In this document: positions 9,153 to 50,108 of the stretch, one piece after another
Layout: each line of letters begins with the position of its first letter
How positions within the stretch are numbered: the first letter of the stretch is position 1
From: Octopus vulgaris
Lineage: Eukaryota
Assembly (NCBI GenBank): GCA_951406725.2
Contig: OX597816.1
Coordinates: 60,016,001-60,080,000, forward strand
Direction of reading: 5' to 3'
DNA length: 64,000 nt
Translations under genes and position numbers: made by a program
The notes under the pieces: model-generated
The model's database searches: none
Seen by the model: only the letters and a program-made list of their open reading frames with translations
Told to the model about the DNA's origin: nothing

Positions 9153-9245
9153 CTAAGCCGCTCGCTTTCTTACTTTGGAACCTCTCTTCTTTTTGTCTAG
9201 GAGTAGTCGCTGTCGGAGTTCCTTTCTTCTTGCATCTTCCTTTTC
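9153..9245 (-). CDS. NHEJ1: NHEJ1/XLF terminal coding exon 7, basic C-terminus (EKEDARRKELRQRLLLDKKKRGSKVRKRAA*)
   Basis: Acceptor ctgttttcctag|GAA, phase 0; TAG at 9155-9153. Lys/Arg-rich end as expected for XLF. Exons 1-7 total 972 nt = 323 aa + stop. Confidence 0.7.
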   Translation of the reverse strand, partial: EKEDARRKELRQRLLLDKKKRGSKVRKRAA

Positions 9246-11030: not shown

Positions 11031-11194
11031 CTTCTCTAGAATTTCTGTCATGGATGGTGAAGTCACAAGAGGACATATTTCTACCTCATTCTTTACTGGC
11101 TCCTTTTTATCCAGGTATGAAGTACCATTCAACCAAGAAGGGCCACCTGCTTTGTAAGCACATTGAGAACTTTCATTGTCATCACTAGTATCAC
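11031..11194 (-). CDS. NHEJ1: NHEJ1/XLF coding exon 6, low-complexity tail ((G)DTSDDNESSQCAYKAGGPSWLNGTSYLDKKEPVKNEVEICPLVTSPSMTEILEK)
   Basis: Acceptor tattttcag|GT, phase 1, in frame with exon 5; 164 nt open; ends at a non-canonical donor AAG|gcatgt (GC-AG), phase 0. Confidence 0.7.
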
Positions 11195-24927: not shown

Positions 24928-25554
24928 GGTAATGAGAAACAGATGGTGTGTAAAGCAAAGAAAAAAAAATAGCAGTACGAGATCCAGCCCCAATTTTGTC
25001 CTTTAACTAATAATGATATCTTTGGCACAAATCCACAAATTTGTAGGCAACTGGGAAAATAATGAATTAAACTGAAGCCCCAGCTATTTGTCTGGTACTT
25101 GTTTATATAAGACTCGAGGTGAAAGGTAAAAATCAAATCTAATTCTGATAGGATTTGAACTCAGATGTAACTTCTCATAACTATTGATGCAATACAGAAT
25201 TATTTCAAATCCTCAACCTTCAGCCTGCTAATGTGTCTTTTTCCTTTTTCTTTTGTTTTTTTTCTTGTAGCAAAAATACATTTTGAAGCCTAGTTGTGAA
25301 AACACCTACAAATTATTAAGAGCAGCAATGTATTTGGTATTGTTGCTGTCCCTTTCTCACCCAGTACACCTAATACTACAGACTGTCAGAAGCAAAACAA
25401 CTCCTTGATAGAAAATATAATATATACATAAATTTGACCTATATATTGTTGTATAGTTAAACAGCCATCGGCAACAAAGATTGTGATTTGGTATTTCTGT
25501 GTTGAGAATAACTGGCTGATTAAAACATTTCTCAGTATGGCACCGCAATGATGA

Positions 25555-25835
25555 ACCGACCAGGCTATCAGATATTGCTACACATCGCTGGTCACAATGC
25601 GCTTCGCATTGTTTTAGCCTTCAAATGACGCCACCCTGCTGGCTAAGCGAGCAGGCCAACTGAAGTAAGAGTGAGAGAAATTTGTGGCGAAAGAGTACAG
25701 CAGGGGTCGCCACCACCCCCTTCCACAGCCTTGTGGAGCTTTAGGTGTTTTTGCTCAATAAACACTCACAACGCCCGGTCTGGGAATCGAAACCGCAAGT
25801 CCACTGCCCTATCCACTGGGCCATTGCGCCTCCAC
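25555..25835 (-). mobile_element. SINE family B inserted just 3' of the zinc-finger stop codon
   Basis: Head on minus reads gtggaggcgcaatggcccagtgg; flanked by a ~113-bp direct duplication. Confidence 0.8.
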
Positions 25836-25860
25836 ATATTGTTGAATAGTTAAACAGCCA

Positions 25861-26618
25861 TCAGCAACAAATATTGTGATTTTCTATTTCTGTGTTGAGA
25901 ATAACTGGCTGATTAAAACATTTCTCAGTATGGTACCGCAAAGATGAACGCCATTTATAAATCTTATTGCAGCGTCGACATCGATAATGTTGACTGCCAT
26001 GCTGACCACGCATGTGAGTGGAAAGAGAGTCTTTTGACGAACAAGTCTGCTCACAGATGTTACATCGAAACAACTCACCACCATGGTGCTTTGTACGACC
26101 ACAGAAACGTTTATGGGACAACAAACTTTTTTTGAAACGAAATGTTAAATTACATCGGTCACATTTTTCTTCTAGTATGTGATGTTTGTCAATGTGAGCT
26201 TTGTATGTCCAGAAACTATCAAAACCACGACCGCATATTGAGCAGTTAAATAGAAATTTTCCAAGGTGTTTAGAATTCATGTGACTCTGCAATCCATATT
26301 GAGTTTTATAGTGCTGACCACATTGTGGACAAGATATATTCCCAGCATTAAACAATGGCAATGGATCAGCCAGAACTGTTTGCTGAAGTTGACCATCAAA
26401 GTTGGCATTGATATTTAGAGCAGAGTCTCTGTGGTACATGCTGACATGATGAAGCAGAAGTTCTTGAGAACTGGTTGAAAATATGCACTGGTTGCAATCA
26501 TAGATGTCAGGGCCAATGTTAACCTTCTGCTCATGTTCTTCTACAGCAGTCGACAGTTCTGCAAGCTCTGTGAACACATTGGAAGATTCTTCTATGGGTT
26601 TTGTAATTTCAAAGGTTT
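25861..26618 (-). CDS. Terminal exon encoding six zinc fingers (4 C2H2 + 2 C2HC); probable alternative last exon of NHEJ1/XLF
   Basis: Intact 758-nt frame after the acceptor catttcatttccacttccag|AA. Fingers: CNQC..H...H, CPQC..H...H, CSIC..H...H, CDRC..H...C, CNIC..H...H, CRRC..H...C. No in-frame ATG before finger 1 (the ORF track started at GTG). No TGEKP linkers. Confidence 0.9.
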
Positions 26619-27796
26619 CTGGAAGTGGAAATGAAATGTAAGATGGAATATAAATATTAGTTATCCAAATATTAGTTACCTAAAAATTACAAGATTTTAG
26701 TAAAAATTTACAAACAATTAACTATTAATCAAAAAATATTTTCTTTTATCATAAAAAACTCTTGTAGGTAAGTAGTGAGAGCACTGTCACTTGAATTAAC
26801 ACCAGAATATTATTACTATTTCACTGACTATTTTGAGCGATTAAAGCAAAGCTGAGACTGACAACAGTTCGGTCAACTAAAAATTTAAAAAGTACATTAG
26901 TCACGGGAACACAACAAGGGATATTACCTGTTCCACACTCATCTTTTTCAGTCATTACCCAACCTCATCTTGCTAAACAACCCTCATGGATCACAACTCT
27001 TACTTTTTCAGAATAAAGTGATATGAATCTTAATTATACTGTATGATCTTTAGTCTGATGCTCTTTTATTCTCAATCTGCCACTCTCAAATACCTTATTG
27101 TTTTTGGTAAAGGGCTTTAGTCTAAAAAGCCCTTTATCTTATGGCACACTTAATTTTGTGAACTTTATCAATTGATTTTTTTGCCACGGCAAATGTGATG
27201 TCAAATTAATAAAATGATGGCTTTGCTTATTTCCAAAGTCTTTCCATATCACTAATATTCATAGTAAGGTTAAATATGGTGGTAAGAAAAAAAAATCAGA
27301 GGAAACCTTTTTTGAGTATTTCATATGCTATATGCACCTCAATTTTGGCAGGCTTTTCCATTGTTTCAACATCCAATTCAGAGAGAATTTATTGAGGCAG
27401 AATTTCTGTGGTTGGATTCTATTTCTATCGTCAACCACACCTCAGTCCAAGCAAGGTAATATTTTCTCATGACCAGACATGCTTTTGCAAAATATTGGTA
27501 ATGAATGACACTGCTTGTATGTCAGTGACACTCATTTACAACTACCACGCAATATCAACACAGAAACATAGTCATACACACATGACAGGATTCTTACAGT
27601 TTCCATCTACCAAATCCACTCACAAGTCTTTGGGGCTATAGTAGAAGATACTTACCTAAGGTGCCATGTTGTGAGACAGAACCCAAAAACAAATGGATAA
27701 AAGGCAAACTTCTTAACCACACAGCCATGCATGAACCTTAACCATACCTTCACTTTGTGCAACATAGTCGCACAATATATAAACAATATATAAACA

Positions 27797-28185
27797 GGCA
27801 CAGGAGTGGCTGTGTGGTAAGTAGCTTGCTTCCGGGTTCAGTTCCACTGCGTAGCACCTTGGGCAAGTGTCTTCTACTATAGCCTCGGGCCGACCAAAGC
27901 CTTATGAGTGGATTTGGTGGACGGAAACTGAAAGAAGCCTTTCGCATATATATATATGTATGTGTGTGTGTGTGTATATGTTTGTGTGTGTGTTTGTCCC
28001 CCCAACATTGCTTGACAACTGATGTTGGTGTGTTTACGTCCCCATAACTTAGCGGTTCAGCAAAGAGACCGATAGAGTAAGTACTAGGCTTACAAAGAAT
28101 AAGTCTTGGGGTCGATTTGCTTGACTAAAGGTGGTGCTGCAGCATGGCCGCAGTCAAATGACTCAAGTAAAAGTGTAAAAGAGAA
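27797..28185 (+). mobile_element. SINE family A copy
   Basis: Consensus match with a short head deletion. Confidence 0.85.
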
Positions 28186-28842
28186 TGTATTTGTATACAT
28201 GTACAAAGTATATGTATATGCACATAGTTGTATAACACATATACAGACTGTACAGTTACACACTTTGTAACTTAATATATATATATTACAAACTAAAAAA
28301 AAATCATTACACTAGGCATTGAAAATATCAAAACGAAATAACACTTAGATACACATATACATACACTCCATATACAAACAAATGCCAGAATTTTTCAAAA
28401 ATTCTGAACTGCTATATAAAAAAAATTCAAGTGTCTTTCATCCTTGTGAACTTAATGAAGTAACTACTGAACAAATACTGGATTGATATTAGTTATACTA
28501 TTGAAGGTGGTGCCCTCTAGCATGGCTACAATCCAATAACTGAGGAAACCAGTAAAAATATAAAAGAAATAAGTACTTAGCACAGATCAAATTGCAGTTC
28601 TAGTTGACCAAACACATGGCACGAATGCAGGTAGTCAGTCAAACAACTAGGTAGGTTAAACACATGTCTGCTGTTCTAGTTTAGGGATCAGTAAATTTCA
28701 TATATAATAAACCCCTTCATTGTATTGTTGATAGCTTATTGTAACCCCAATCATGAAGATTTCTTAAATAAAATAATATACAATGATTTGAGAGGAATAG
28801 ACAAAAAAATTAAAATGCTTATGTCATCATAGTAAGAGTTCT

Positions 28843-29183
28843 GGTCTACTGACTGATCTGATACTCCTAGATGATAGAGAATTGGTATGACTTTTTAGGG
28901 ATGACATCTGAAAGGATTCCAAAAATCCTTGAAATTGGAGTAAGCAAGGCAGACTCATCAAACACACTTCTGTGAGCACTTCATACCAAAACTTATATTG
29001 CTGTTGTCATAAGTGCAAGCAGCAGAGACAAAGTTTTCAGACACCAAATTTGTCTGGTCAACAATAAATATTTTGCCTCGCTTACTGCAACTATAAGGAT
29101 TTTAAAAAATCCTTCCAAATTCCATCCCTAAAGAATCTTACAAATTCTCTATCATCTCAGGGCATCAGAGCAGTCAGTAGACC
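28843..29183. repeat. Degenerate inverted repeat / old MITE with ~100-bp arms
   Basis: ggtctactgactgatctgatactcctagatgatagagaatt... pairs with ...aaattctctatcatctcagggcatcagagcagtcagtagacc. Confidence 0.6.
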
Positions 29184-29184
29184 T

Positions 29185-29820
29185 GTCAGTTTTCTTGCTA
29201 AGTTAACCTTGAGGCCCTTAAATTCCAGGTTTTGCTTCCACAACTGAAATTTTTCATCTAGCTCTGATATGGAATTCACTATGATGGCAAGATCATCAGC
29301 ATATAGTCATTCCCATGATGAAAAGGAGGGGACTAAGGTCCAAACCTTAATAAACCCTTACCTGTACACCAAATTCTTCCCTTTTACTTGTGGTTAACTC
29401 TCACCTTACAGTATCTTCGTACATGGCTTGTACAGCTCTCACCAGCCACTTGTCTATACCTAGACTTCTCACAGCCCATCATATCACACAGCAGGGCACT
29501 CTTACAGAAGGCTTCCTCTAGATCAACAAATGCCAATTATAATGGCTTATTCTTAGCTAAGTACTTATCTTGCAGTTGCCTGACTATGAAAATAATGTCA
29601 GTAGTGTTTCTTCCCCGGACAAAGCAGAACTGCATTTTGTCTAGCCTAATTCTGCTCCTAACTAACTGGGCAATAACTCTCTAATTTTCATCACCTGGTT
29701 CAGCAGATTGATGCCTTTAAAGTTGCTACCCTGTTAGCAGCTAACAATTGTGCTGCTAAGCCAGTCACTGGGTATCACACCTTGAATGACCTGATTAAAC
29801 TATGTAGGGTGACCAGCCTG
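29185..29820 (-). mobile_element. Degraded RTE-LINE reverse transcriptase remnant
   Basis: Minus strand retains YADDLA and RQLQDKYLAKNKPL..AFVDLEEAF pieces homologous to 34700-35120. Confidence 0.75.
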
Positions 29821-30199
29821 TATCTTATCTTACCGGATAGTTGAAGAAATTGACTCTAGTACTTATTTTTGAGGTCTGGTAGTTATCAGTCTCTTTATGT
29901 GAACTGCTAAGTTATGATAACTTAAACCAATACCGGTTATCAGCTGTGACTATATCATCTTTTAAAATTAGTAACCAAATCTCATATCTCACTCTATCAT
30001 CGTAAAAAGGGGACACACTGGATAGTAATAATGATGACGATGATGATAATACAAAAATGATCATTGCTTGGAATTGCAAGGGTCCTCTGCAGAGTTCGTG
30101 AAGTATGATTAGTAAACAGGTGTCACCTTAGTTAACTGGCTGTGGGTAGCTGACACTTTCCACCACATCCAGCAAAATAAAGCTGAGATTTTTCATGAA

Positions 30200-30790
30200 A
30201 TAATAATAATAATAATAAATGCCCTGATGCAATACCAGACAGTGGCTCTCATGGTTTCTGATCTTAACTGATAGGAAGTGTTATCATGTACATTGTTTTA
30301 TCTTGGTATAAAAGATGGGCGTCAGCAAATATTCTGCTCAATACCACAGATTTGCTTGTCAGTTGTTTGACCATAACCAGTTGAGCATGTCCCTTAGTGG
30401 CTGACGATACGTGCATCTCTGATCACGAGCAGAAGTAGTGGAAGAGCATCATAGCTGTGTGTTGAAAGGAATTCTTAGAGGTTTGGATAATTCACCTTTG
30501 GAAACATGGGTGGATCATTCAATATCCTTAAACAATCCTTATTCAGGGACATCTTGAGCTGGATGGGCTACTTGACCAGAAGAAAATTCTAACCAGGCCC
30601 CACCTGCAAGGTCATGTGCTGTATATCTTGAAATGAGATCACCATGTCCCACACATATGGTTATGATGCATGTGCCTAGTGTACCTTTATCAGACGGGTA
30701 GTCATGATGGATATACTGGGCTTGGTATATTTTACCCCAGTGTCACTTTGATGGCTTGCACTGCTCTCTCACTCAATAATAATATTAATA
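30200..30790 (+). mobile_element. ~570-bp interspersed repeat, second copy
   Basis: Homologous to 20590-21165. Confidence 0.7.
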
Positions 30791-31368
30791 ATAATAAAAA
30801 CTACAGTTTTCAAGACTGAGGTACCCTTGATCGAAACGTTTGAACACCAACAACAGCAGTAGCAGTAATATGAATTTTACATTTCTGAATGAAATAAGCA
30901 AACAAACATTTACAAGAACATAATGATAAATAATGTAAATATATACACAATAATTACCATACAAGTAAATAATGGCAAACGTGTGTGTATGTATAAATAT
31001 GTGTGAGTGTGTGCGTATACATACACATATACATTATATTTAAGGAGGTGAGCTGGCAGAATCGTTAGCATGTCAGGTAAAGTGATTAGTGACATTTCAT
31101 CTGTATTTGCACTCTCGGTTCAAATGCCGCCAGGGTCATTCTACCTGGTCAGCTCCTGTCAACCATCCTCCCCATGCATGCATGGAAGATGGATATTAAA
31201 TGATGAGGATGACAATGACAAGCTTCTTTCAGTTTCTGTCTACCAAATCCACTTACAAGGTTTTGGTCAACCTGAGGCCATAGCAGAAGACACTTGCACA
31301 AAGTGCTATGCAATGGGATTGAAACCAGAACAGTGTGGTTGGGAAGCAAGAATCTTACCACACAGACA

Positions 31369-31401
<33 letters not shown>

Positions 31402-32182
31402 CGTTTAATGCCTGTTTTCCATGCTAGCATGGGTTGGACGGTTCGACCGGGATCTGGGAAGCCAGGAGGCTACACCAGGCTCCAGTCTGATCTGGCAGTG
31501 TTTCTACAGCTGGATGCCCTTCCTAACGCCAACCACTCCATGAGTATAGTGAGTGTTTTTTGTACGTGCTACCGGCACAGGGGCCAGAGGAGGCTGGCAA
31601 ATGGCCACGATCGGTTGGTGCTTTTATGTGTTACCGACATGGACGCCAGTCAGGCGGCACTGGCATCTGTCACGTTCAGACAATGCTTTTTATGTGTCAC
31701 CGGCACAGATATATATATATATAGGAGATGACAAATGACTGCAACAAACTCAAAGTATTATGCTGAAGAAGACCAATCCAAATCAGGTAGCATGGAGGGA
31801 TGTGGCTACTGAGTTGGTGGTGGTGACGAGGGATGGGTTGGGTGGTGATGTTTTGTTATGAAAACTCAAACATAAATGCTAAGATATACAAACACACATT
31901 GAGAGACTACAACATTCAAGAAATACAGATATACTCATAGACAGACAACTATATATACACATTATGCATACTCACACATAGATATATACATAGAGCTGTA
32001 CACTCATGAAACACATACAATACAGTTATACTCACAGTCAGACCTCTATGCATGTTACATACACACACACACACGAGGTCAGTTACACCAAATAAGGACT
32101 GACCTGGGATATGATGATTCATTCAACCTATACCAGTATGGAAAAAATTGTGGTAAAAATGGTGATGATATTTTATATTATA

Positions 32183-32225
32183 CTAGCACTATGACCCGGC
32201 ATTTTGCCGTTTATATATAGAGAGA
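32183..32225 (-). mobile_element. 43-bp minimal Helitron-like element
   Basis: Minus strand A|TCTCTCTATATATAAACGGCAAAATGCCGGGTCATAGTGCTAG|T: 5' TC, 3' CTAG, between A and T. Confidence 0.55.
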
Positions 32226-33419
32226 TATAAGGAGGTGAGTTGGCAGAATCATTAGCATGCTGGGTAAAATGATTAGTGACATTTTTTCTGTCATTATGTT
32301 TTGGGTTCAAATGCTGCCAGGGTTGACTTTGCCTTTCATCCTTCCCAGGTTGATAAAATAAGTACCAGTTGAGCACTGGGGTCAATGGGATCTACTTAGC
32401 CCCTCTCCCAAAATTGCTGGCTTTGTGTCAAAATTTGAAGCCAATATCCTATGTCCTCCATCTTCCACCAGATCATCCTGTCAGGGCTTTACTCTCATTT
32501 GAGGTAGCAGCTACAGGCTGCTGGAGGTATCATGGCAGGCCCCGCACCAGATGGGTGGACATGATTGGGGAAGATCTCCAGAGGCTCGACATCACTGTGG
32601 AGGATGCAGGAGAGCTGGCACAGGGACCACCAGTGATGGAAAGCACTAGTGGATCTAGTTGGCTCTACACATGATGATGTCTGAGTCTGAGACCACCAAC
32701 TTGGAATGACCCCAGCCCAATCAAGCAAGACCAGGACCTACCTAGTAGTCAAAAGAAAACAGAACACTACTAATCGGAAAGTGGCCATCTTTAATATAGA
32801 GAGAGAAAGTAAAAAAGATGTAGGAGGATTGCTAGCAGGCTGACAAAGGATTTCCTATCTTAAAAATGCATAGGAATAGTTAGTTGATGGCAAGAGCGGA
32901 GGTAAGTGTCGCAAAAGCATAGTAATCAAGGTAAGGATGAAGTGAAAAATGTTCAGGGAATTTATCTACTTTGTCAGTAACAAAGAACTTCTTTCTGCAA
33001 ATGAAGAGTAGACTGTACAACATTTTTATACAAAGTGTGGTACAATATATGGTAGTGCTCATGGGCACTGTGCATGGGGATATATTAAAAGCTGAAAAGA
33101 AATGGAGTATGCTCCACTAGGTGTGTGAGAGTAATGTGCAAGAACAGCAGAGCACCAGTGTGTTGGGTGAAAAACTCCAGCTTTAGAGGTATCAGAATAA
33201 ATGATTCAGAGACAGTTAATTCTTGTATTATATCAACCTGCTTGAGGCTACTTCTGTTTTAAATTAAAATATGCCACCATGACTTATAAATAAAAACCTC
33301 TTTTATGTTCCAAACACCACCATAATAATGAAAAAGTTATTTGACTAAATTCCCATCAATTTCTTGATTATTTAAAAAAAATTAATTGAAACACAAAATA
33401 GTCACAAAAGGGTTCAGTA

Positions 33420-36400
33420 AGTATTGAACGACAGAGACCGTCTCTTTGTGGCTGGTGACTTCAATGGGCATGTTGGACAACATGCTGGAGGCTTCTATGG
33501 CGTACATGGAGGCTACGGTTATGGTTCCCGCAATGAGGAGGGAGCCAGGCTGCTGGAGTTCTGTGATGCAAATGATCTTATGGTTTACAACACTAACATC
33601 AGGAAACCTACCAGCCACCTAGTCACCTACCGATCGAGCCGACATACTAGCCAAATTGACTACATCCTTGCCAGAAAAAGGGAAAGATGGCTGCTTATAA
33701 ATACCAAAACCTTCCCAGATGAAGAATGTACCCAACAACATAGACTGGTTGTTAGTGACTTTAGGATCAGGACTAAGAGGACAACCAGAAGACGACCAGC
33801 ATGGAGAAGAAGGGTCTGGAAGCTAAAAGATCTTGCAAATGGACAGAGATTTAGAGACATATTACTTGAAGCCTTTGACGAAATAGAAGGGGATATAGTT
33901 TCACATGGAGTAGAAGACAACTGGAGGTTTCTAAGGGACAACCTGCTGAGAGCCACTGACCAGATCTGTAGATGGTGCAAAGTCCCATATAAACCCAAAA
34001 TAACGTGGTTGTGGAACAACATTGTAGACAGGGCTATCAGAGAAAAGAGACAGGCTTGGAAGGGCTGGAAGAATGGTGGTAGCAGGGAATCATATCAGAC
34101 TGCCAGAAGAGAAGCTAGGAGACAGGTCTATTTAGCCAGAGGGGAAGCAGATAAGAAAAAATTTGCCAATGTTCTGCGCTGTGAGGACCAAAGACTTGAG
34201 GTATTTCGTGTTGCAAGGCAGTGTGTGAGAGAGAATCGTGATGTGGTAGGAGAGAAATGTGTTCACATGGATGATGGTTCACTTGCGCTAAATGAGGCTG
34301 CAAAGAGAGAGGTTTGGAGACGCCACTATGAAAGGTTGCTGAACAAAGAAAATGAATGTGAGAAAGAGAGTCTGCCAATTGTCGACCCAACAGAGGGATC
34401 AGCTATCCAATTTGACAGTACCTTGATAGTTAAAGCAATTAAAAGTATGAAGACAGGGAAAGCCCCCGGCCCATCAGGAATTACTGCAGAGATGCTCAAA
34501 ATAGCTGGCAGTGTCGGCATTAGCCTGGTCACCCATATAGTTAACCAGGTGAGTCATACCCAATGACTCGTGTAGCAGCACTATAGTCAACTGCTACAAA
34601 GGAAAAGGTGACGCTTTAGATACAAATAATTACAGAGGTATCAAGCTCTTGGATCAGGTAATGAAGACCACGGTGAGGGTCATAGCCCAACTAATTAGGG
34701 AGAGAGTCAGTTTAGATGAGATGCAGTTTGGTTTCATACCAGGGAAAAGCACCACTGATGCTATATTTCTGGTTAGACAGTTGCAGGAGAAATACCTAGC
34801 CATAGATAAGCCCCTGTACCTGGCTTTCGTTGACATGGACAAAGCCTTTGAAAGGGTCCCCTGATCCCTTATCTGGTGGTCAATGAGAAAACTAGGGATA
34901 GATGAATGGTTAGTGAGAGCCGTGCAAGCCATGTACAGGGACGCTGTCAGTAAGGTGAGGGCTGGTAACAAGTACAGTGAAGAATTCCGGGTAGAGGTAG
35001 GGGTCCACCAAGGTTCAGTCCTCAGCCCCCTCCTATTTATCATAGTCCTCTAGGCAATAACAGAGGAATTCAAGACAGGATGCCCCTGGGAGCTCCTCTA
35101 TGCTGATGACCTTGCTCTAATTGCTGAGTCACTAACAGAACTAGAAGAGAAGTTTCAAGTGTGGAAAGAAGGATTAGAATTGAAGGGCCTTAGTGTCAAC
35201 CTAGCTAAAACCAAAGTCCTAATATGTAGGAAAGCAGGCAAACCACAAATTCCTTCAGGTAAATGGCCCTGCTCGATCTGTAGAAAAGGTGTAGATAGAA
35301 ACTCTATAAGATGTACCCTGTGTAAGCTATGGACACATAAGTGCAGCAATATCAAAGGAAGGCTAACTGGGAGGATAGTTTCTGTATGTGGTAGATGCTT
35401 GAGAGCTATATATAACACTGAAAATGTGCAGAGAACAACTTCCGCCACATTCCAGGGAGAAAAACTAGAAGTAGTTGATAGCTTCCGTTACCTAGGTGAC
35501 CAAATCAGTAGCAGAGGAGGGGGCACTGAAAGTGTAGCTGCTAGAATAAGAATAGCCTGGGCTAAGTTCAGAGAGCTCTTACCTCTGCTGGTGACAAAGG
35601 GCCTCTTGCTCAGAGTAAAAGGTAGACTGTAAGATGCATGTGTACGAACAGCCATGCTACATGGCAGTGAAACATGGGCTGTGACTGCTGAGGATATGCG
35701 TAAGCTCGCAAGGAATGAAGCCAGCATGCTCCGATGGATGTTTAAGTACCCTGAGAGAAAGGTTGGACCTAAGAAGCATCAGATGTGGTGTGCAAAAGAG
35801 ACGACTGCGCTGGTATGGTCATGTGTCAAGAATGGATGTAGATAGCTGTGTGCAAAAGTGCCACACCCTAGCAGTTGAGGGAACCTATGGAAGAGGTAGA
35901 CCTGGGATGAGGTGGTGAAGCACGACCTGCAAACATTGGGCCTCAGTGAGGCAATGACTAGTGACCGGGACCTCTGGAAATATGCTGTGCTGCAGAAGAC
36001 TCGGCAAGCGCAAGTGTGACCATAACCTTGTGGCCTATGCTAGGGGGTAACCAGTCCACTTATGCGTGCCTTCTCTTCATTGGACACTAAACTCTGCTTG
36101 TGAAGACCAGTTGAGGCAAGTGAAATTGAAGTCGAAATCAAACTCGGTGACTGGCATCCGTTGCTAGTGGAGCGCTAAGAGTACCATATGAGTGAGATCG
36201 TTGTCTGAGCAACAAACTGGCCTTCGTGCCGGTGGCACATTAAGCACACCATTCGAGCGTGATCGTTACCGCGTCGCCTTACTAGCACTTGTGCTGGTGG
36301 CACGTGAAGCATTCGAGCGAGGACGTCACCAGTGCCGCTGGACTGGCTCCTGTGCAGGTGGCACGTAAAAAGCACCATTTGGATGTGGCCGTTGCCAGTA

Positions 36401-36588
36401 CCACCAAACTGGCCCCCGTGCCGGTGGCACGTAAAAGCACCCGCTACACTCTCGGAGTGGTTGGCGTTAGGAAGGGTATCCAGCTGTAGAAACTGCCAGA
36501 TCAGATTGGAGTCTGGTTCGCTAGACCTCAGTCAAATCGTCCAACCCATGCTAGCATGGAAAGCGGATGTTAAATGATGATGATGATA
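33420..36588 (+). mobile_element. 5'-truncated RTE-clade LINE (AP endonuclease + RT + C-terminal region + 3' tail); inactivated
   Basis: APE motifs GDFNGHVG, SQIDYIL, QHRLV; RT motifs KAPGPSG, QFGF, AFVDMDKAF, GVHQGSVLSPLLF, LYADDL; LRWYGHV..M; several stops/frameshifts; ends (GAT)n. Confidence 0.92.
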
Positions 36589-37410
36589 TTCAATGCAGAG
36601 AGCCAAGACTGTGAGATAGTGAAACACATAAGGCTAACAAGTGACAAAAATATCTTGGGCCTAAAAGAAACCATCTGAATTTCAGTCAGATGTAGATGTG
36701 ATTTCCATATAGAGGAGGAAAGATCTGTCTTGGTATAGTTTTATACACAAGATTTTATGGGAATTAGCAGAAAAAAAACAAAACAACTTTGGTCTATAAT
36801 GATATGAAGTTTTATGAAATTTATGAAACTATAATGAACAAAGTTATAAGAATTGTGTAAACAGTAAAATAATAATGGAGAAACACAAATGATGGCAGCA
36901 AGGGAAAATAAATAATAATGAGAACAGTAATTCTTTTAGGCTGAGTAAACCAAATTTTATAAAACAGACACATCTCTCAATTTCAGTGGCATGTGTTCCT
37001 GTCATTGAATCAATGGAACTGTTTATTCATTGATTATAATGCAAATGGCAAAGTATTTTAGACACTGGTACCATTGACTTAATACCAGAGTAGGATCAGT
37101 GACACATTATATGATATGACTGGCTGATTATTTAATATCCTTCACAAGATTCAGGCTGACTCAAGGCCATGAAATAAAAGACTTGTTCAAGGTACTTTGC
37201 AGCAAAATCAAAACTTTTTGATTCAGAAAATTCTTAACTGTATTCTGCTCTTGAAGCATAATACAGAAAGGACATGACAAGACAAAACTCACAAAAGTGA
37301 CCACTGTAAACCTGAAAAACAGATTGTTGACTATGGTGGTGGTGATGATGATGATGACAGCAATAACAGGTGACAATGACAAAATTTTACAAAAGAATTA
37401 GGTCAACTAC

Positions 37411-37531
37411 CTGGATCTGCTTTGCTACATTTGTGCAACCATGTGTATTTTGTCATAATTTGCCGATAAAGATCCTGACCATAACTTTCAAAAGCAGTTG
37501 TCCCCAACAGTTTCACATTATCTTCAAATTC
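37411..37531 (-). CDS. NHEJ1: NHEJ1/XLF coding exon 5 (EFEDNVKLLGTTAFESYGQDLYRQIMTKYTWLHKCSKADP + G)
   Basis: Long T tract then tgtag|GAA, donor CCA G|gtagtt; 121 nt, phase 0-1, open. QDLY motif as in human LQDLY. Confidence 0.88.
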
Positions 37532-37949
37532 CTACATTTTTCAAAGAAAAAAAAACAAGAAATAACAATAAAACAAAATAATTAAGCTTCATCAATTAAT
37601 CAAAGACAAAACAAAAAGAGGCAATGCAGTTGGAACATTAAACATCAATAACAATAACAAACATAAGGACTGTTACCTTGGAAATATTTAATAAGACTTT
37701 ATATTACATGTAAAATGATCCTTTCCAATGGTGTTAAAGCAACTGGAAGGAAACATGACTGGTTGACATATGGGTTCTGCATAACTATAACCAAAAGATC
37801 TCATATGCAGAGATGAAGAATTTTCGGCTGTGGATTATGTTCCATGGACTGTGATGAATGCAAGAAACTGGACCAGGTATTGTCAGATACAGTGACTGAA
37901 AGAAGTGGCTATAGTAGCCACTGCAGCTCATTCAATTTCAACCAGTCCT

Positions 37950-38600
37950 GGAAGGTTGATTTATGTCTTTTGATCAGAATGGCTTCTTTAATCTGTAGGT
38001 TACCAACTATACTGACTGTGGTTTTGAGTGACTGCCCTATCTTTATTTATGTTCCTAAATTTATCAAAGTGTTTCATGAACAATGATGTCCATCTAGAGA
38101 TGTTTGTTGATTCAGATATTACATAGCACTGGCTATGTAATATTCATGACTGAACCTGGTACACACATAGCAGATGGGGTAGTTGGCCACAATGTATAGG
38201 TTTGTCATTGGAGAGTTACTTCTGAGATGAACATTTCCATAGGTGAAAGTCAGTGAACAGTTGCATTTCCAGCTCTTCTTTATGGATAGCCTTGTAGGAA
38301 ACAGCAGTTATACTATCACTAAAGAGTAGAAAACAGGTGTTGGAAGAGGTTTTCCATTTCTTGCTTGAGAACTCTGAAGATGACTAACAACAGATGCTAA
38401 GAATTCATTTTTGACTTTCAGCATCTTCTGGAACCGTGTGATATGGAAAGCCCATTCTTTTGTCTCACTGCATTCAAGGCAGATATAATGAAGTTCTTTG
38501 TATATACCTAGTCAAACACTGATAGGAAGAACTGGTCTGTAGCAGACAGATAGATTTCTGATGATGGCTTTTTTGTAGATGTCTGCTCTATCTGTAATTG
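37950..38600 (-). mobile_element. Possible degraded Penelope-like (GIY-YIG) remnant
   Basis: Minus strand gives LQIKEAILIKRHKSTF, resembling the PLE endonuclease C-terminus; otherwise highly decayed. Confidence 0.3.
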
Positions 38601-39910
38601 CAAGTTAGCTTTTCTGAATTAAATTGTACATTAAAAAATATACATGGTTGAATGATGAAATTAATAATTCTTTGCAAGTTTGGCAGAAGGCCAGGAAAAA
38701 ATTAATAAATAATAACATTCTAGAAGTGCTTATGAGGTACCCTATTTCTTTATATTTTTCCTCGTATGTTTTCATTGGTTCCAGTCATTAGACTCTGACA
38801 GTATTGGAGCACTGTCTTGAAAGATAGAGTTGTTTAAAACAACCATGGTACTTGACTGGCATTTATTTTATTAATTATGAGAAGATAACCAGCAAAGTCA
38901 ACCTGGACAGTTCCTTTTTTTTAATTATTATTTAGAGCATAGAGGAAGGTATTTAGAGCATAAATACCATGAACAGCTACCACGGGCTACTTTGTGAGGT
39001 GTTCTACCAATCATGACATACCATTTCAATATTATGAATGAGAGCCAACAAAGCAACATAATACGGTTACTAAACCTGTAAGAAATAGTTGCCATATTTC
39101 CCTCAAATTCTACCCCACTGTGTGGTGGCCTGTGAGCCTCAATGACTGAGACATAGAGCTATTCCAGTGGAGCACAAGCCCCTGGTAGAGCTTCTCTTGC
39201 TGGACAGGAGAACAGAAACAGGCCGGACAAATATAGACCACTTCTTCCCAGAGGTAAAAAATGGGTCTGCATAGGGCTGATACATCATCATCATCGTTTA
39301 ACGTCCGTTTTCCATGCTAGCATGAGTTGGACGGTTCAACTGGGGGTCTGGGAAGCCAGAAGGCTGCACCAGGCCCAGTCTGATCTGGCAGTGTTTCTAA
39401 AGCTGGATGCCCTTCCTAACGCCAACCACTCAGAGTGTAGTGGGTACTTTTTATGTGCCACCTGCACATACACTGTCTAGAAAAAAAAAACAGTTACAGA
39501 AGCACTGATGACAATTCAAAACCAGCAACACCTGGGAGAAGGCCTCTCAGAGAAATGATGTGATGCAACAAAATCTGAATGGAAACCAATATCCGGTATT
39601 ATACATCAGGCTCTGACCTGGAACTTACAAGGAAGGTGGAAGAGAAGACACCCTAAATCTAGATGGAGGGGGGATACGGAGGTAGAAATCAAAAAGGAGG
39701 GATCCTAATGGATAAAAACAGAAGAGATAGTCCAGAGTCAAGAAAAGTGGAGAAAAGTTGTCTATGGGCTATATTCAATTGGGAATGATGGGCTTAAGTA
39801 AGAAACTCTATATCTTGGCAAAAAAAGACAGGGTTGTAACAACTGGAATGTTTCTGATCATAGGGTTAGCTTGATCAGGACTCCTTGGGTTAAAATAATA
39901 ATCCACTCAC

Positions 39911-39972
39911 CTTTGATAGCACCATATTGTTTCCAAAGGATGTTTCATCAAAGTAAACAGTTGCTAATTGCT
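39911..39972 (-). CDS. NHEJ1: NHEJ1/XLF coding exon 4 ((K)QLATVYFDETSFGNNMVLSK)
   Basis: Acceptor tttcag|AG, donor AAG|gtgagt; 62 nt, phase 1-0, in frame with exon 3. Resembles human RLKTEPFEENSF. Confidence 0.88.
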
Positions 39973-40159
39973 CTGAAATGATGATATAAAAATATTAAGG
40001 TTAGAAGATTTACTTTTTGCCTTTTATATTACAAATAGTGAAGAATAACAGATCACACTTTCTCAATGGATCAATCTATGCAGGAACTTTGTTCAAAAAG
40101 AACAATTTCAGAAATATTTCTTGTTGATGTGTACAACTTTTGCCTATGTATATTGGTGA

Positions 40160-40213: not shown

Positions 40214-40900
40214 CTAGTTGTTGAGGGAACCTGTGGAAGAGGTAGACCAAGGAAGACCAGGGATGAGGTGGTCAAGCATGACCTTCGAACATTGGACCTC
40301 ACTGATGCAATGACTAGTGACCAGGACCTTTGGAAATATGTTGTGCTTGAGAAGACTCGGCAAGCCAAGTGAGACCATAACCTCGTGGCCTATGCCAGGG
40401 GTGTAACCAGCCCACTTGTGCATACCTTTTCCTTCTTTGGACACTAAACTCTGCTTGCAAAGACCTGTTGAGGCAAGTGAAATCGAAATCAAATTCAATG
40501 ACTGGCATCCATGTTAGTGGAGCGCTAAGAATACAATCTGAGCGTGATCGTTGCCAGAGCAACAAACTGGCTTCCGTGCCAGTGACATGTAAAAAGCACC
40601 ATTCGAGTGTGATCGTTACCCGCGTCGCCTTACTGGCACTTGTGCTGGTGGCATGCAAAAAAACATTCAAGCAAGGTTGTTGCCAGTGCCGCTGGACTGG
40701 CTCCTGTGCAGGTGGCACATAAAAAGCACCATTGAGCGTGGTCGTTGCCAGTCTCGTGCCAGTGGCACGTAAAAGCACCCACTACACTCTTGGAGAGGTT
40801 GGCGTTAAGAAGGGCACCCAGCTGTAGAAACTCTGCAGGATCAGATTGGAGCCTGGTGCAGCCATCTGGTTCGTCAGACCTCAGTCAAATTGTCCAACCC
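40213..40900 (+). mobile_element. RTE-LINE 3' segment (end of ORF + tail)
   Basis: Homologous to 35865-36548. Confidence 0.85.
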
Positions 40901-42490
40901 AGCTATCCCTAGTTTCCAAACTGACCATCAGATAAGGGATTGGGGGACCCTGTCAAAGGCTTTCTCCATGTCAACGAAAGCTAGGTACAGAGGTTTATCT
41001 TTGGCTAGGTATTTCTCCTGCAGCTGTCTTACCAGAAATATAGCATCAGTAGTGATTTTCCCTGGCACAAACCCAAACTGCATCTCGTCTAAACTGACTC
41101 TCTCCCTAATTAGTTGGGCTATGACCCTCTCCAGGACTTTCATTACCTGATCCAACAATCTGATATCACTGTAATTATTTGTATCTAATGCATCACCTTT
41201 ACCTTTGTAGCAGTTGACTGTGGTGATGCTACACCAGCCATTGGGTAGGATTTCTTCATGCATCACCTGATTGACTATATAGGTGACTAGACTGTAGCCG
41301 ACACCGCCAGATATCTTAAGCATTTCTGCGGTGATTCCTGATGAGCTGGGGGCTTTCCCTGTCTTCATACCCTAAATTGCTTTATCTACCAAGGTACTGT
41401 CAATTCAGATAGCTGGTCCCTCTGTTGGCTCAACATTTAGCAACCTTTCATAGTGGTGTCTCCAAGTCTCTCTCCTTGCAGCCTCATTAAATGCAAGTGA
41501 GCTGTCATCCATGCAGACACATTTCTCTCCTATGACATCATGATTCTCTCTCACACTGTCTTGCAACAAGAACCAGCTCAAGTCTTTGGTCCTCACCACA
41601 CAGAACATTTGCAAACTTTTTCTTATCTGCTTCCCCTCTGGCTAAGTAAACCTGTCACATAGTTTCCCTTCTGGCAATCTGATACAATTCTCTCCTCCCA
41701 CCATTCTTCCAGTCCTCCCAAGCTGGTTTCTTTTCCCTAATGGACCTGTCAATTACACTGTTCCACCACCATGTTACCTTGGGTTGAGAGGGGACTTTGC
41801 ACCATCTACAGATCTGGTCAGTAGCACTCAACAGGTTCTCCTGTACAAACCTCCAGTTGTCTTCCACATCATATCTCCCTGTATTTTGTCAAAAGCTTTG
41901 AGTAATACATTTCTAAATCTCTGTCCATTTGCAGGATCCTTAAGCTTCTAAACCCTTCTTCTCCATGTTGGTCGTCTTCTGGGCATCCATTTAGCCCTGA
42001 TCCTGAAGTTGCTAACTACTAATCCATGTTGTGGGGTGCATTCTTCACCTGGGAAGGTTTTGGCATTTATAAGTAGACATCTTTCCCGTTTCCTGGTGAG
42101 GATGTAATCAATTTGACTAGTGTGTCTACTAGATCGGTAGGTGAATAGGTGGCTGGCAGGTTTCCTGAAGTTAGTATTAAAAACCATAAGATCACTTGCA
42201 CCACAGAATCCAACAGCCTGGTTCCCTCCCCATTGCAGGAACCAAAACTATAGCCTCCATGTATGCCATGATAGACTACTGCATGTTGTCTAACATGCCC
42301 ATTGAAGTCGCCAGCTACAAAGCGAAGGTCCCTGTCATTCGTCGTCGAGGTAATCTGCAAGAGGGTGTCATAAAATCAGTCTTTCTGTTCATCAGGTAGC
42401 CTCAGCTGAGGGGCATAGGACGAGATAATGATTGCTAAACCATGTTGCAGCACTAATCTAATCTGAAGTATTTTATCACAGATTCTGACA
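40900..42490 (-). mobile_element. RTE-LINE 5'/middle segment (APE + N-terminal RT), inverted relative to the copy at 33420
   Basis: Minus ORFs give FVAGDFNGHV, SQIDYIL, KTGKAP, DEMQFGF, AFVDMEKAFDRVP; disrupted. Confidence 0.9.
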
Positions 42491-42674: not shown

Positions 42675-42813
42675 TTTGATTAAGTTTAACAGACTGAGCT
42701 CTGTAATCCTCAATTTCTAAATCCTTTTTGGAAATAATATGAATAAGTTCTCTCTGGCGACGATTCAACTCGGACACCATCATTAAAAGTGGAATAGTCA
42801 TGTTCTCAGAGAC
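42675..42813 (-). CDS. NHEJ1: NHEJ1/XLF coding exon 3, coiled-coil (VSENMTIPLLMMVSELNRRQRELIHIISKKDLEIEDYRAQSVKLNQ)
   Basis: Acceptor catcag|GTC, donor CAA A|gtaaat; 139 nt, phase 0-1. Contains the XLF hallmark KDLEI.DY. Confidence 0.95.
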
Positions 42814-43059: not shown

Positions 43060-43254
43060 CATTTCTTCATGTGCTGGTTCTCCAACCAATTGCCAGGTGA
43101 AAGGGAACCTAGAAAGTTTGGAATTAATCCATATATGCATAGTTCCTTTGTCATCTTTGGAAATTCTCAAATTGTCAGACGGATTTTTATCAATATTCAG
43201 TTTAATATGCTCAAGAATTTTAGAAATTGGAGCTTCTAGATTGGGATTAAGTTC
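43060..43254 (-). CDS. NHEJ1: NHEJ1/XLF coding exon 2 (ELNPNLEAPISKILEHIKLNIDKNPSDNLRISKDDKGTMHIWINSKLSRFPFTWQLVGEPAHEEM)
   Basis: Acceptor ttttag|GAA, donor ATG|gtaatt; 195 nt, open, phase 0-0. ELN..L.AP and S.LS..PF.W are XLF motifs (human ELNKRLTAP / SELSGLPFYW). Confidence 0.92.
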
Positions 43255-49910: not shown

Positions 49911-50108
49911 CTGTAAACGTTGGCAACATTCTCTTTCTGTTAATGATTCGCACCAATAATTAGTGAGGTCTGTAATCATGCATTCGTAACAATTCTCTCC
50001 GAAGCGAGTTTTAATCAAGTAGACATACTCGTCAGCTTGCAGGATACGCCAGGGACAACATTTCAAATCCGGTTTCCATAAACTTCGCCATTTCGTCTCT
50101 AGATCCAT
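49911..50108 (-). CDS. NHEJ1: NHEJ1/XLF coding exon 1 (66 codons, MDLETKWRSLWKPDLKCCPWRILQADEYVYLIKTRFGENCYECMITDLTNYWCESLTERECCQRLQ)
   Basis: ATG at 50108-50106; donor CAG|gtaaag at 49910; 198 nt, phase 0. Residue pattern PW..L....YLIK..F....Y..MITDL...W.E......QR matches the XLF/XRCC4-family head domain N-terminus as recalled from human XLF. Confidence 0.92.

Follow-up and report, generated by a model that had tools for sequence, protein, structure and literature searches.

XLF (NHEJ1, Cernunnos) is a core factor of non-homologous end joining (NHEJ), and in vertebrates its recruitment depends on a Ku-binding tail. Xenopus XLF is reported to need both the Ku-binding motif and a sufficiently long tail, with one motif per dimer being enough, and L115 is described as an XRCC4 contact (PMC7744095). 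Four described systems offer points of comparison for the gene studied here. In primate ERCC6, a repair gene, intron 5 contains an alternative 3′ terminal exon whose use yields CSB-PGBD3, reported as an abundant and conserved in-frame fusion beside the canonical protein (PMC2268245); Drosophila genes of the lola type encode BTB-zinc-finger proteins in which a common dimerising N-terminus is spliced to alternative last exons with C2H2 and C2HC fingers (PMC1947980); ZNF384, a C2H2 protein that binds DNA at breaks, promotes assembly of the NHEJ machinery (PMC8589989); and coleoid cephalopod genomes hold expanded clusters of C2H2 genes (PMC9068888). Here we analyse the NHEJ1 gene in a stretch of 64,000 nucleotides (nt) of the Octopus vulgaris genome (contig OX597816.1, positions 60,016,001 to 60,080,000; hereafter the window, in whose numbering coordinates are given), in which the XLF tail alternates with an exon that encodes six zinc fingers.

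The octopus gene is a true NHEJ1. Like canonical XLF it encodes a head and a coiled coil (Pfam XLF and XLF_CC), aligns with residues 9–238 of the human protein and has a basic-ended tail isoform; it differs in a second isoform that swaps the tail for fingers, and in an octopod tail without the final hydrophobic residue. As in CSB-PGBD3, the second ending is an intronic, in-frame alternative last exon, conserved and used alongside the canonical one; in contrast to that fusion, the captured exon is a C2H2/C2HC array in which a Pfam scan of the finger isoform finds no transposase family, the host core is kept whole, and the arrangement is about 275 million years (My) old against the reported 43 My (PMC2268245). 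The likeness to lola and mod(mdg4) drawn in an earlier note on this DNA, which was made from its sequence alone, extends to the common dimerising N-terminus and the pairing of C2HC with C2H2 fingers, but not further: Pfam finds no BTB domain in the full isoform, there is one finger exon rather than about 20 (no further exon of the kind in six frames of 264 kb, the window plus 100 kb on each side), splicing is plainly in cis and a repair tail forms the other ending. ZNF384 likewise ties C2H2 fingers to assembly of the NHEJ machinery on DNA, but as a separate Ku-binding protein, whereas the octopus fingers are covalently joined to the core factor; this comparison is one of function, not of sequence. 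The finger exon also belongs to a coleoid genome rich in C2H2 fingers, yet differs from the expanded clusters, and from Kruppel-type tandem arrays in general (including human ZNF112, the source of its RefSeq name), in lacking TGEKP-type linkers, and has no close paralogue among the candidates scored.

One gene with two endings

From a single coleoid NHEJ1 gene, choice of ending almost certainly yields two proteins that have their folded XLF core (amino acids (aa) 1–238) in common: one finishes in the ancestral disordered tail with its basic C-terminal motif, and a coleoid-specific exon gives the other an acidic linker and six zinc fingers. All exons lie on the minus strand of the window. Coding exon 1 (49911..50108, with the ATG at 50108) begins the head domain, as placed by Pfam XLF and the exon boundaries; exon 2 (43060..43254) continues the head and carries F116, the equivalent of human L115; exon 3 (42675..42813) encodes the coiled coil recognised by Pfam XLF_CC; and exon 4 (39911..39972) leads to exon 5 (37411..37531), the last common exon, at whose phase-1 donor CCAG|gtagtt the isoforms part. 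The five shared exons total 715 nt and end in phase 1.

Joined to the coding part of the alternative last exon (25861..26618, 758 nt), exons 1–5 give 1473 nt and a 490-aa protein that is letter for letter the RefSeq record XP_029633395.1 (P0009), with GT/AG at every junction. This exon supplies aa 239–490: a predicted acidic helix, the isolated C2H2 finger 1 within an acidic region (26431..26496, aa 280–301), a linker, the array of fingers 2–6 (25915..26340, aa 332–473, net charge +17) and a stop; its 3′ untranslated part occupies 25300..25860, extends to at least 25300 and is covered by contigs in all four runs described below. Joined instead to tail exons 6 (11031..11194) and 7 (9153..9245), the same five exons encode 323 aa, identical throughout to P0015. 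Exon 6 has a phase-1 acceptor and a GC donor at 11031, making intron 6 a GC-AG intron, and exon 7 encodes a basic, Ku-binding-motif-like C-terminus without the usual final hydrophobic residue. The window translations of both isoforms are identical to records named Octopus sinensis, and the finger exon matches an O. vulgaris record at all aligned residues but one.

The earlier note had predicted the 490-aa reading from the phase-1 end of exon 5, a good acceptor at 26618 and the lack of an ATG ahead of finger 1, and the record agrees with it in full; the first Met of the open frame indeed falls within finger 1. Its phase-1 acceptor at 11194 for the normal tail was right as well, but the tail takes two exons and not one, and of its six supposed C2H2 fingers two, 4 and 6, are C2HC. 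A control for chance singles out the acceptor (...ccacttccag|AAACC): the minus strand of intron 5 has 1530 AG dinucleotides, and the one at 26618 alone opens a phase-1 frame of at least 250 codons; it is also the sole one to combine a frame of at least 150 codons with a pyrimidine-rich YAG acceptor.

Pfam identifies XLF, XLF_CC and zf-C2H2 in the 490-aa protein, with PF09302 at 86.1 bits and PF21928 at 37.2 bits, both over cut-off, and octopus XLF matches human XLF structures at E 6e-18. Because octopus residues 16–241 align with human XLF 9–238, and the short crystallised constructs end near 226–228, the swap point lies at the end of the folded core, where the earlier note had put it. A Pfam XLF search of the 2.8-Gb genome returned this locus only (2 matches from 3 candidates), and as far as such a search can tell the octopus genome has one NHEJ1 gene. 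The XLF introns also contain two decayed, inverted copies of a long interspersed nuclear element with endonuclease and reverse transcriptase remnants, 81% identical, at 33421-35632 (+) and 40900-42340 (-).

Transcript contigs at the splice choice

Twenty sequencing runs hold the finger exon, and contigs from four of them, from four studies, were aligned on 25300-40100. All four show the joint between exons 4 and 5 with CT..AC ends and leave two intron bins (37650-38637) without cover, so we treated them as spliced RNA, a status guessed from these two features. Record 11 of run X12 (1544 nt) passes from 25885-26618 to 37411-37530 at consecutive record positions and thus crosses the predicted junction of 37411 with 26618 exactly; its length would fit the remaining XLF head plus a short leader. 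Runs X1, X5 and X7 each have a finger contig of 764 nt, with 734 nt on the exon, and an exon 5 contig that ends exactly at 37411; both contigs break precisely at the splice sites. We infer the identity of the remaining 30 letters, and the breaks would then reflect a fork at the exon 5 donor, with the two contigs overlapping by 30 letters. Depths of the finger and exon 5 contigs are 17/31.5, 20.1/46.1 and 10.7/35.1, contig depth being a poor measure of expression. The exon 5-to-tail junction, between exons 26 kb apart, lies beyond the stretch that the contigs cover.

A consensus phase-1 donor inside the finger exon, at 26078 (-), would yield XLF with four fingers and the tail, keeping the basic end, and corresponds to the 503-aa model P0001. 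We did not adopt this form: contigs run unbroken through 26078 in all four runs, although contigs drop rare variants. Elsewhere, contig cover of depth ~5 in two of the four runs at 38638-39131, a non-repeat part of intron 4, possibly marks a minor exon, and repeat sequence accounts for at least part of the cover at 29746-30239.

Conservation across coleoids

Both endings are found in octopods and in three decapodiform lineages, cuttlefish and a squid-like relative included. RefSeq holds fusion isoforms of Octopus bimaculoides and O. sinensis under the names 'zinc finger protein 112' or '69 homolog' (NHEJ factor 1 in UniRef), together with tail isoforms X2 and X4 of the same species. In two decapodiform lineages, contigs of 1.6-2.2 kb, too short to hold the introns, encode the fusion and tail pairs P0034/P0026 and P0002/P0019, and in the cuttlefish Acanthosepion pharaonis one gene model runs into the finger exon (P0018) and another into the tail. 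The XLF cores are identical at 238/238 positions within each of the two contig pairs and between P0018 and the tail protein P0017, as expected of the mutually exclusive last exons that had been proposed. In the XLF tree, rooted at the midpoint, decapodiforms group together (99/97) with octopods as their sister (100/99), and the two make up a coleoid group (100/100). The octopus–decapodiform split is dated to about 275 million years ago (PMC9068888), and the presence of both isoforms on both sides makes the arrangement about 275 million years old. At 0.66 changes per site, the branch on which the coleoid XLF cores sit is long beside neighbouring inner branches; the tree is without Nautilus, and a rate increase is not implied.

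Conservation is uneven along the protein. Against octopus, fingers 2–6 are identical at 122/142 and 119/142 positions (84-86%) in two decapodiform proteins, the core at 156/238 and 144/238 (61-66%) and the tail at 28/85 and 22/77 (~30%). Four proteins agree at positions -1, 2 and 3 of every one of the six fingers. Judged from protein identity by region, the fingers are under strong purifying selection at the protein level, which agrees with the earlier view of an intact frame kept by selection. The position of human L115, F116 in octopus, holds F, M, L or V in the 21 alignment rows printed.

A final hydrophobic residue closes 99 of 103 basic-ended XLF proteins (155 examined), decapodiforms among them, and three of the four exceptions are octopod; in these three octopod proteins the tail isoform retains the basic run and lacks the last hydrophobic residue. 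This octopod loss is at most a later adjustment.

Composition of the finger exon

Fingers 1–6 are C2H2, C2H2, C2H2, C2HC, C2H2 and C2HC, so that each C2HC finger comes after a C2H2 finger. No TGEK motif occurs in the exon; of the 13 other loci listed from the same genome, 12 have between 2 and 18 copies. Core and finger array are separated by about 95 residues, and the isoform ends in a non-basic segment without the C-terminal Ku-binding motif. Structure prediction from a six-row alignment gave a mean predicted local distance difference test score (pLDDT) of 42.4, too poor for use.

At the 3′ end of the exon, the last 114 bp are duplicated at 94% identity around a 279-bp repeat insert (window 25443-25949; insert at 25557-25835 in the 3′ untranslated part, second copy at 25443-25556), and it is the second copy that appears in the 527-aa isoforms of O. 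sinensis in RefSeq. The conserved hydrophobic C-terminus of the finger isoform, which closes with LLMAV in another octopod and with LLVQV or LLVQA in decapodiforms, persists at 25861-25900 (-) and 25443-25556 but out of frame; the last dozen residues are therefore different in those Octopus species that have RefSeq models.

Range and origin of the finger exon

A search with an XLF profile recovered 1423 representatives at an E-value of 0.001 or better. Among the best 150 of these, the finger-exon profile matches two, P0001 and P0018, both coleoid and both of the XLF plus zf-C2H2 architecture that the earlier note had envisaged; the 50% clustering of the set can hide isoforms. A search with the finger exon among longer proteins gave 4 matches from 483 candidates, two of which carry XLF and fingers. 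No finger domain occurs in the bivalve, nemertean and brittle-star XLF records retrieved.

We found no paralogous source exon in the octopus genome among the 150 of ~6,100 candidates scored per search: the best other matches are generic arrays, mostly with TGEKP linkers, at 57 bits or less. One 259-aa frame of the same genome (L039:925-1701) has five fingers, the last of them C2HC, no TGEKP linkers and a long acidic leader, and may be the terminal exon of another gene. Outside the genome, a viral scan gave 0 of 86 candidates, two ESM Atlas searches returned generic finger clusters only and a metagenome scan gave two weak matches among 344 candidates. In these two metagenome contigs, finger open reading frames (ORFs) beside an OTU-protease ORF resemble fingers 5–6 (40.8 bits, 24% identity), scoring below generic arrays on contigs that were picked by motif; a mobile-element origin of the finger exon is thus a weak lead, suggested by sequence resemblance. 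The two contigs are related (L048:389-2497 and L049:125-2417), each with an OTU-like protease ORF followed by a C2H2-finger ORF ending in C2HC, and are possibly a mobile element.

The XLF–finger architecture is real, old, strongly conserved and apparently undescribed. Full-text literature searches for XLF with zinc finger and cephalopod, or NHEJ1 with octopus, found no description (subscription papers and supplements lay outside them, and supplement gene lists may name the model), and the main text of the cephalopod genome papers searched mentions neither XLF nor NHEJ. The earlier statement that no such fusion had been described therefore stands for the literature, but not for databases, where the isoform already exists as an automatic RefSeq prediction under a zinc-finger name.

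Fingers as a possible anchor of the XLF dimer

We propose that the fingers take over from the Ku-binding tail in anchoring the XLF dimer, a model drawn from sequence comparison to which we give an even chance. The core of the finger isoform would still dimerise, also with the tail isoform, and could still contact XRCC4. The finger array would bind nucleic acid or chromatin, probably at a specific target, and would place the XLF dimer, and through it XRCC4–ligase IV, on DNA without the Ku-binding motif; mixed dimers would hold one Ku tether and one finger tether. Anchor exchange is the simplest reading of a protein that keeps the core and the hydrophobic L115 position, loses the basic end and carries the +17 array about 95 residues away. 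In its favour, fingers 2–6 are more conserved than the core and do not vary at their recognition positions; Xenopus XLF is reported to need a long tail but only one Ku-binding motif per dimer (PMC7744095); and ZNF384 offers a precedent for C2H2 fingers that aid the assembly of NHEJ on DNA (PMC8589989). The missing final hydrophobic residue of octopod tails would agree with some dependence on a further anchor.

Several points weigh against this model. The core is common to the canonical isoform, so its conservation is uninformative on use in the fusion. Decapodiforms keep a normal-looking tail end together with the finger isoform, which means that the fusion was not driven by loss of the Ku motif. 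The recognition helices are without Arg, Asn or Gln as base-reading residues, which are the norm of DNA-binding finger arrays, and with two C2HC fingers and such atypical helices a protein or RNA ligand is conceivable. A sequence-specific transcription factor would account for invariant recognition helices at least as well as a break sensor would. From published work, Xenopus XLF dimers without tail and Ku motif are reported to fail in extract (PMC7744095), and C2HC fingers may bind protein or RNA (PMC1947980).

The best-surviving alternative, which we consider possible although less probable than anchor exchange, is a transcription or chromatin factor, in which a sequence-specific finger protein without a direct repair role uses the XLF core only for dimerisation and as a scaffold, as BTB is used in lola or the CSB part in CSB-PGBD3. 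The invariance of the recognition positions over about 275 My (date from PMC9068888) argues for it, as do the acidic helix predicted ahead of finger 1, the occurrence of C2HC plus C2H2 finger pairs in lola isoforms (PMC1947980) and the report that the CSB-PGBD3 fusion regulates nearby genes (PMC3459987); however, the entire XRCC4-binding head is kept and not just the dimer stalk, and the gene has neither a BTB domain nor an array of alternative finger exons. It is unlikely that site-directed end joining evolved in coleoids, with the finger isoform reading a specific DNA sequence or structure and parking XRCC4–ligase IV there.

A brake on NHEJ seems improbable. The finger isoform, without the Ku-binding tail and at comparable abundance, would sequester XLF subunits or XRCC4, and splicing would tune the choice of repair pathway. 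Its end is indeed without the basic motif, the depth of its contig is 0.30-0.54 of that of exon 5 in three runs (a rough measure, with no branch in the fourth) and tail-less XLF dimers are reported to be inactive. Yet one Ku-binding motif per dimer suffices according to the same study (PMC7744095), so that mixed dimers should still work, and if truncation were all that mattered there would be no need for an array with 86% conservation.

Very improbable is an exon trap, in which a finger module captured downstream of the NHEJ1 promoter works alone, with the XLF part incidental or with a start of its own as well. Another octopod protein (P0010) does have a Met ahead of finger 1, and a few intronic contigs of low depth (2-4) lie just upstream of the finger acceptor in two runs; against this, the window frame has no Met ahead of finger 1, the in-frame fusion is kept in both coleoid lineages, and the finger contigs of the four runs show no second upstream partner within 25300-40100, which also speaks against splicing of the finger exon to a 5′ exon of its own. 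Annotation artefact or non-functional splicing noise has next to no chance and is already largely refuted: gene models here can be wrong, as P0001 joins part of the finger exon to the tail by an internal donor unused in contigs, but the fusion junction lies within a contig, intron-free fusion contigs come from two decapodiform lineages and conservation is strong.

Implications

Among the best 150 of 1423 XLF representatives, the conserved swap of a tail for fingers in this core end-joining factor is seen in coleoids only, and a generic zinc-finger name has hidden the finger isoform in databases. Coleoids thus offer a natural experiment on what XLF needs as an anchor. If end joining is in fact site-directed, with transposon ends, break-prone neuronal loci and programmed breaks as example sites, one of the core factors of NHEJ would have acquired sequence specificity along the stem lineage of coleoid genome rearrangement and C2H2 expansion. 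More broadly, the fingers could steer the XLF scaffold to particular DNA sites, and the finger isoform may mark targeted repair or the co-option of a repair scaffold into cephalopod gene regulation.

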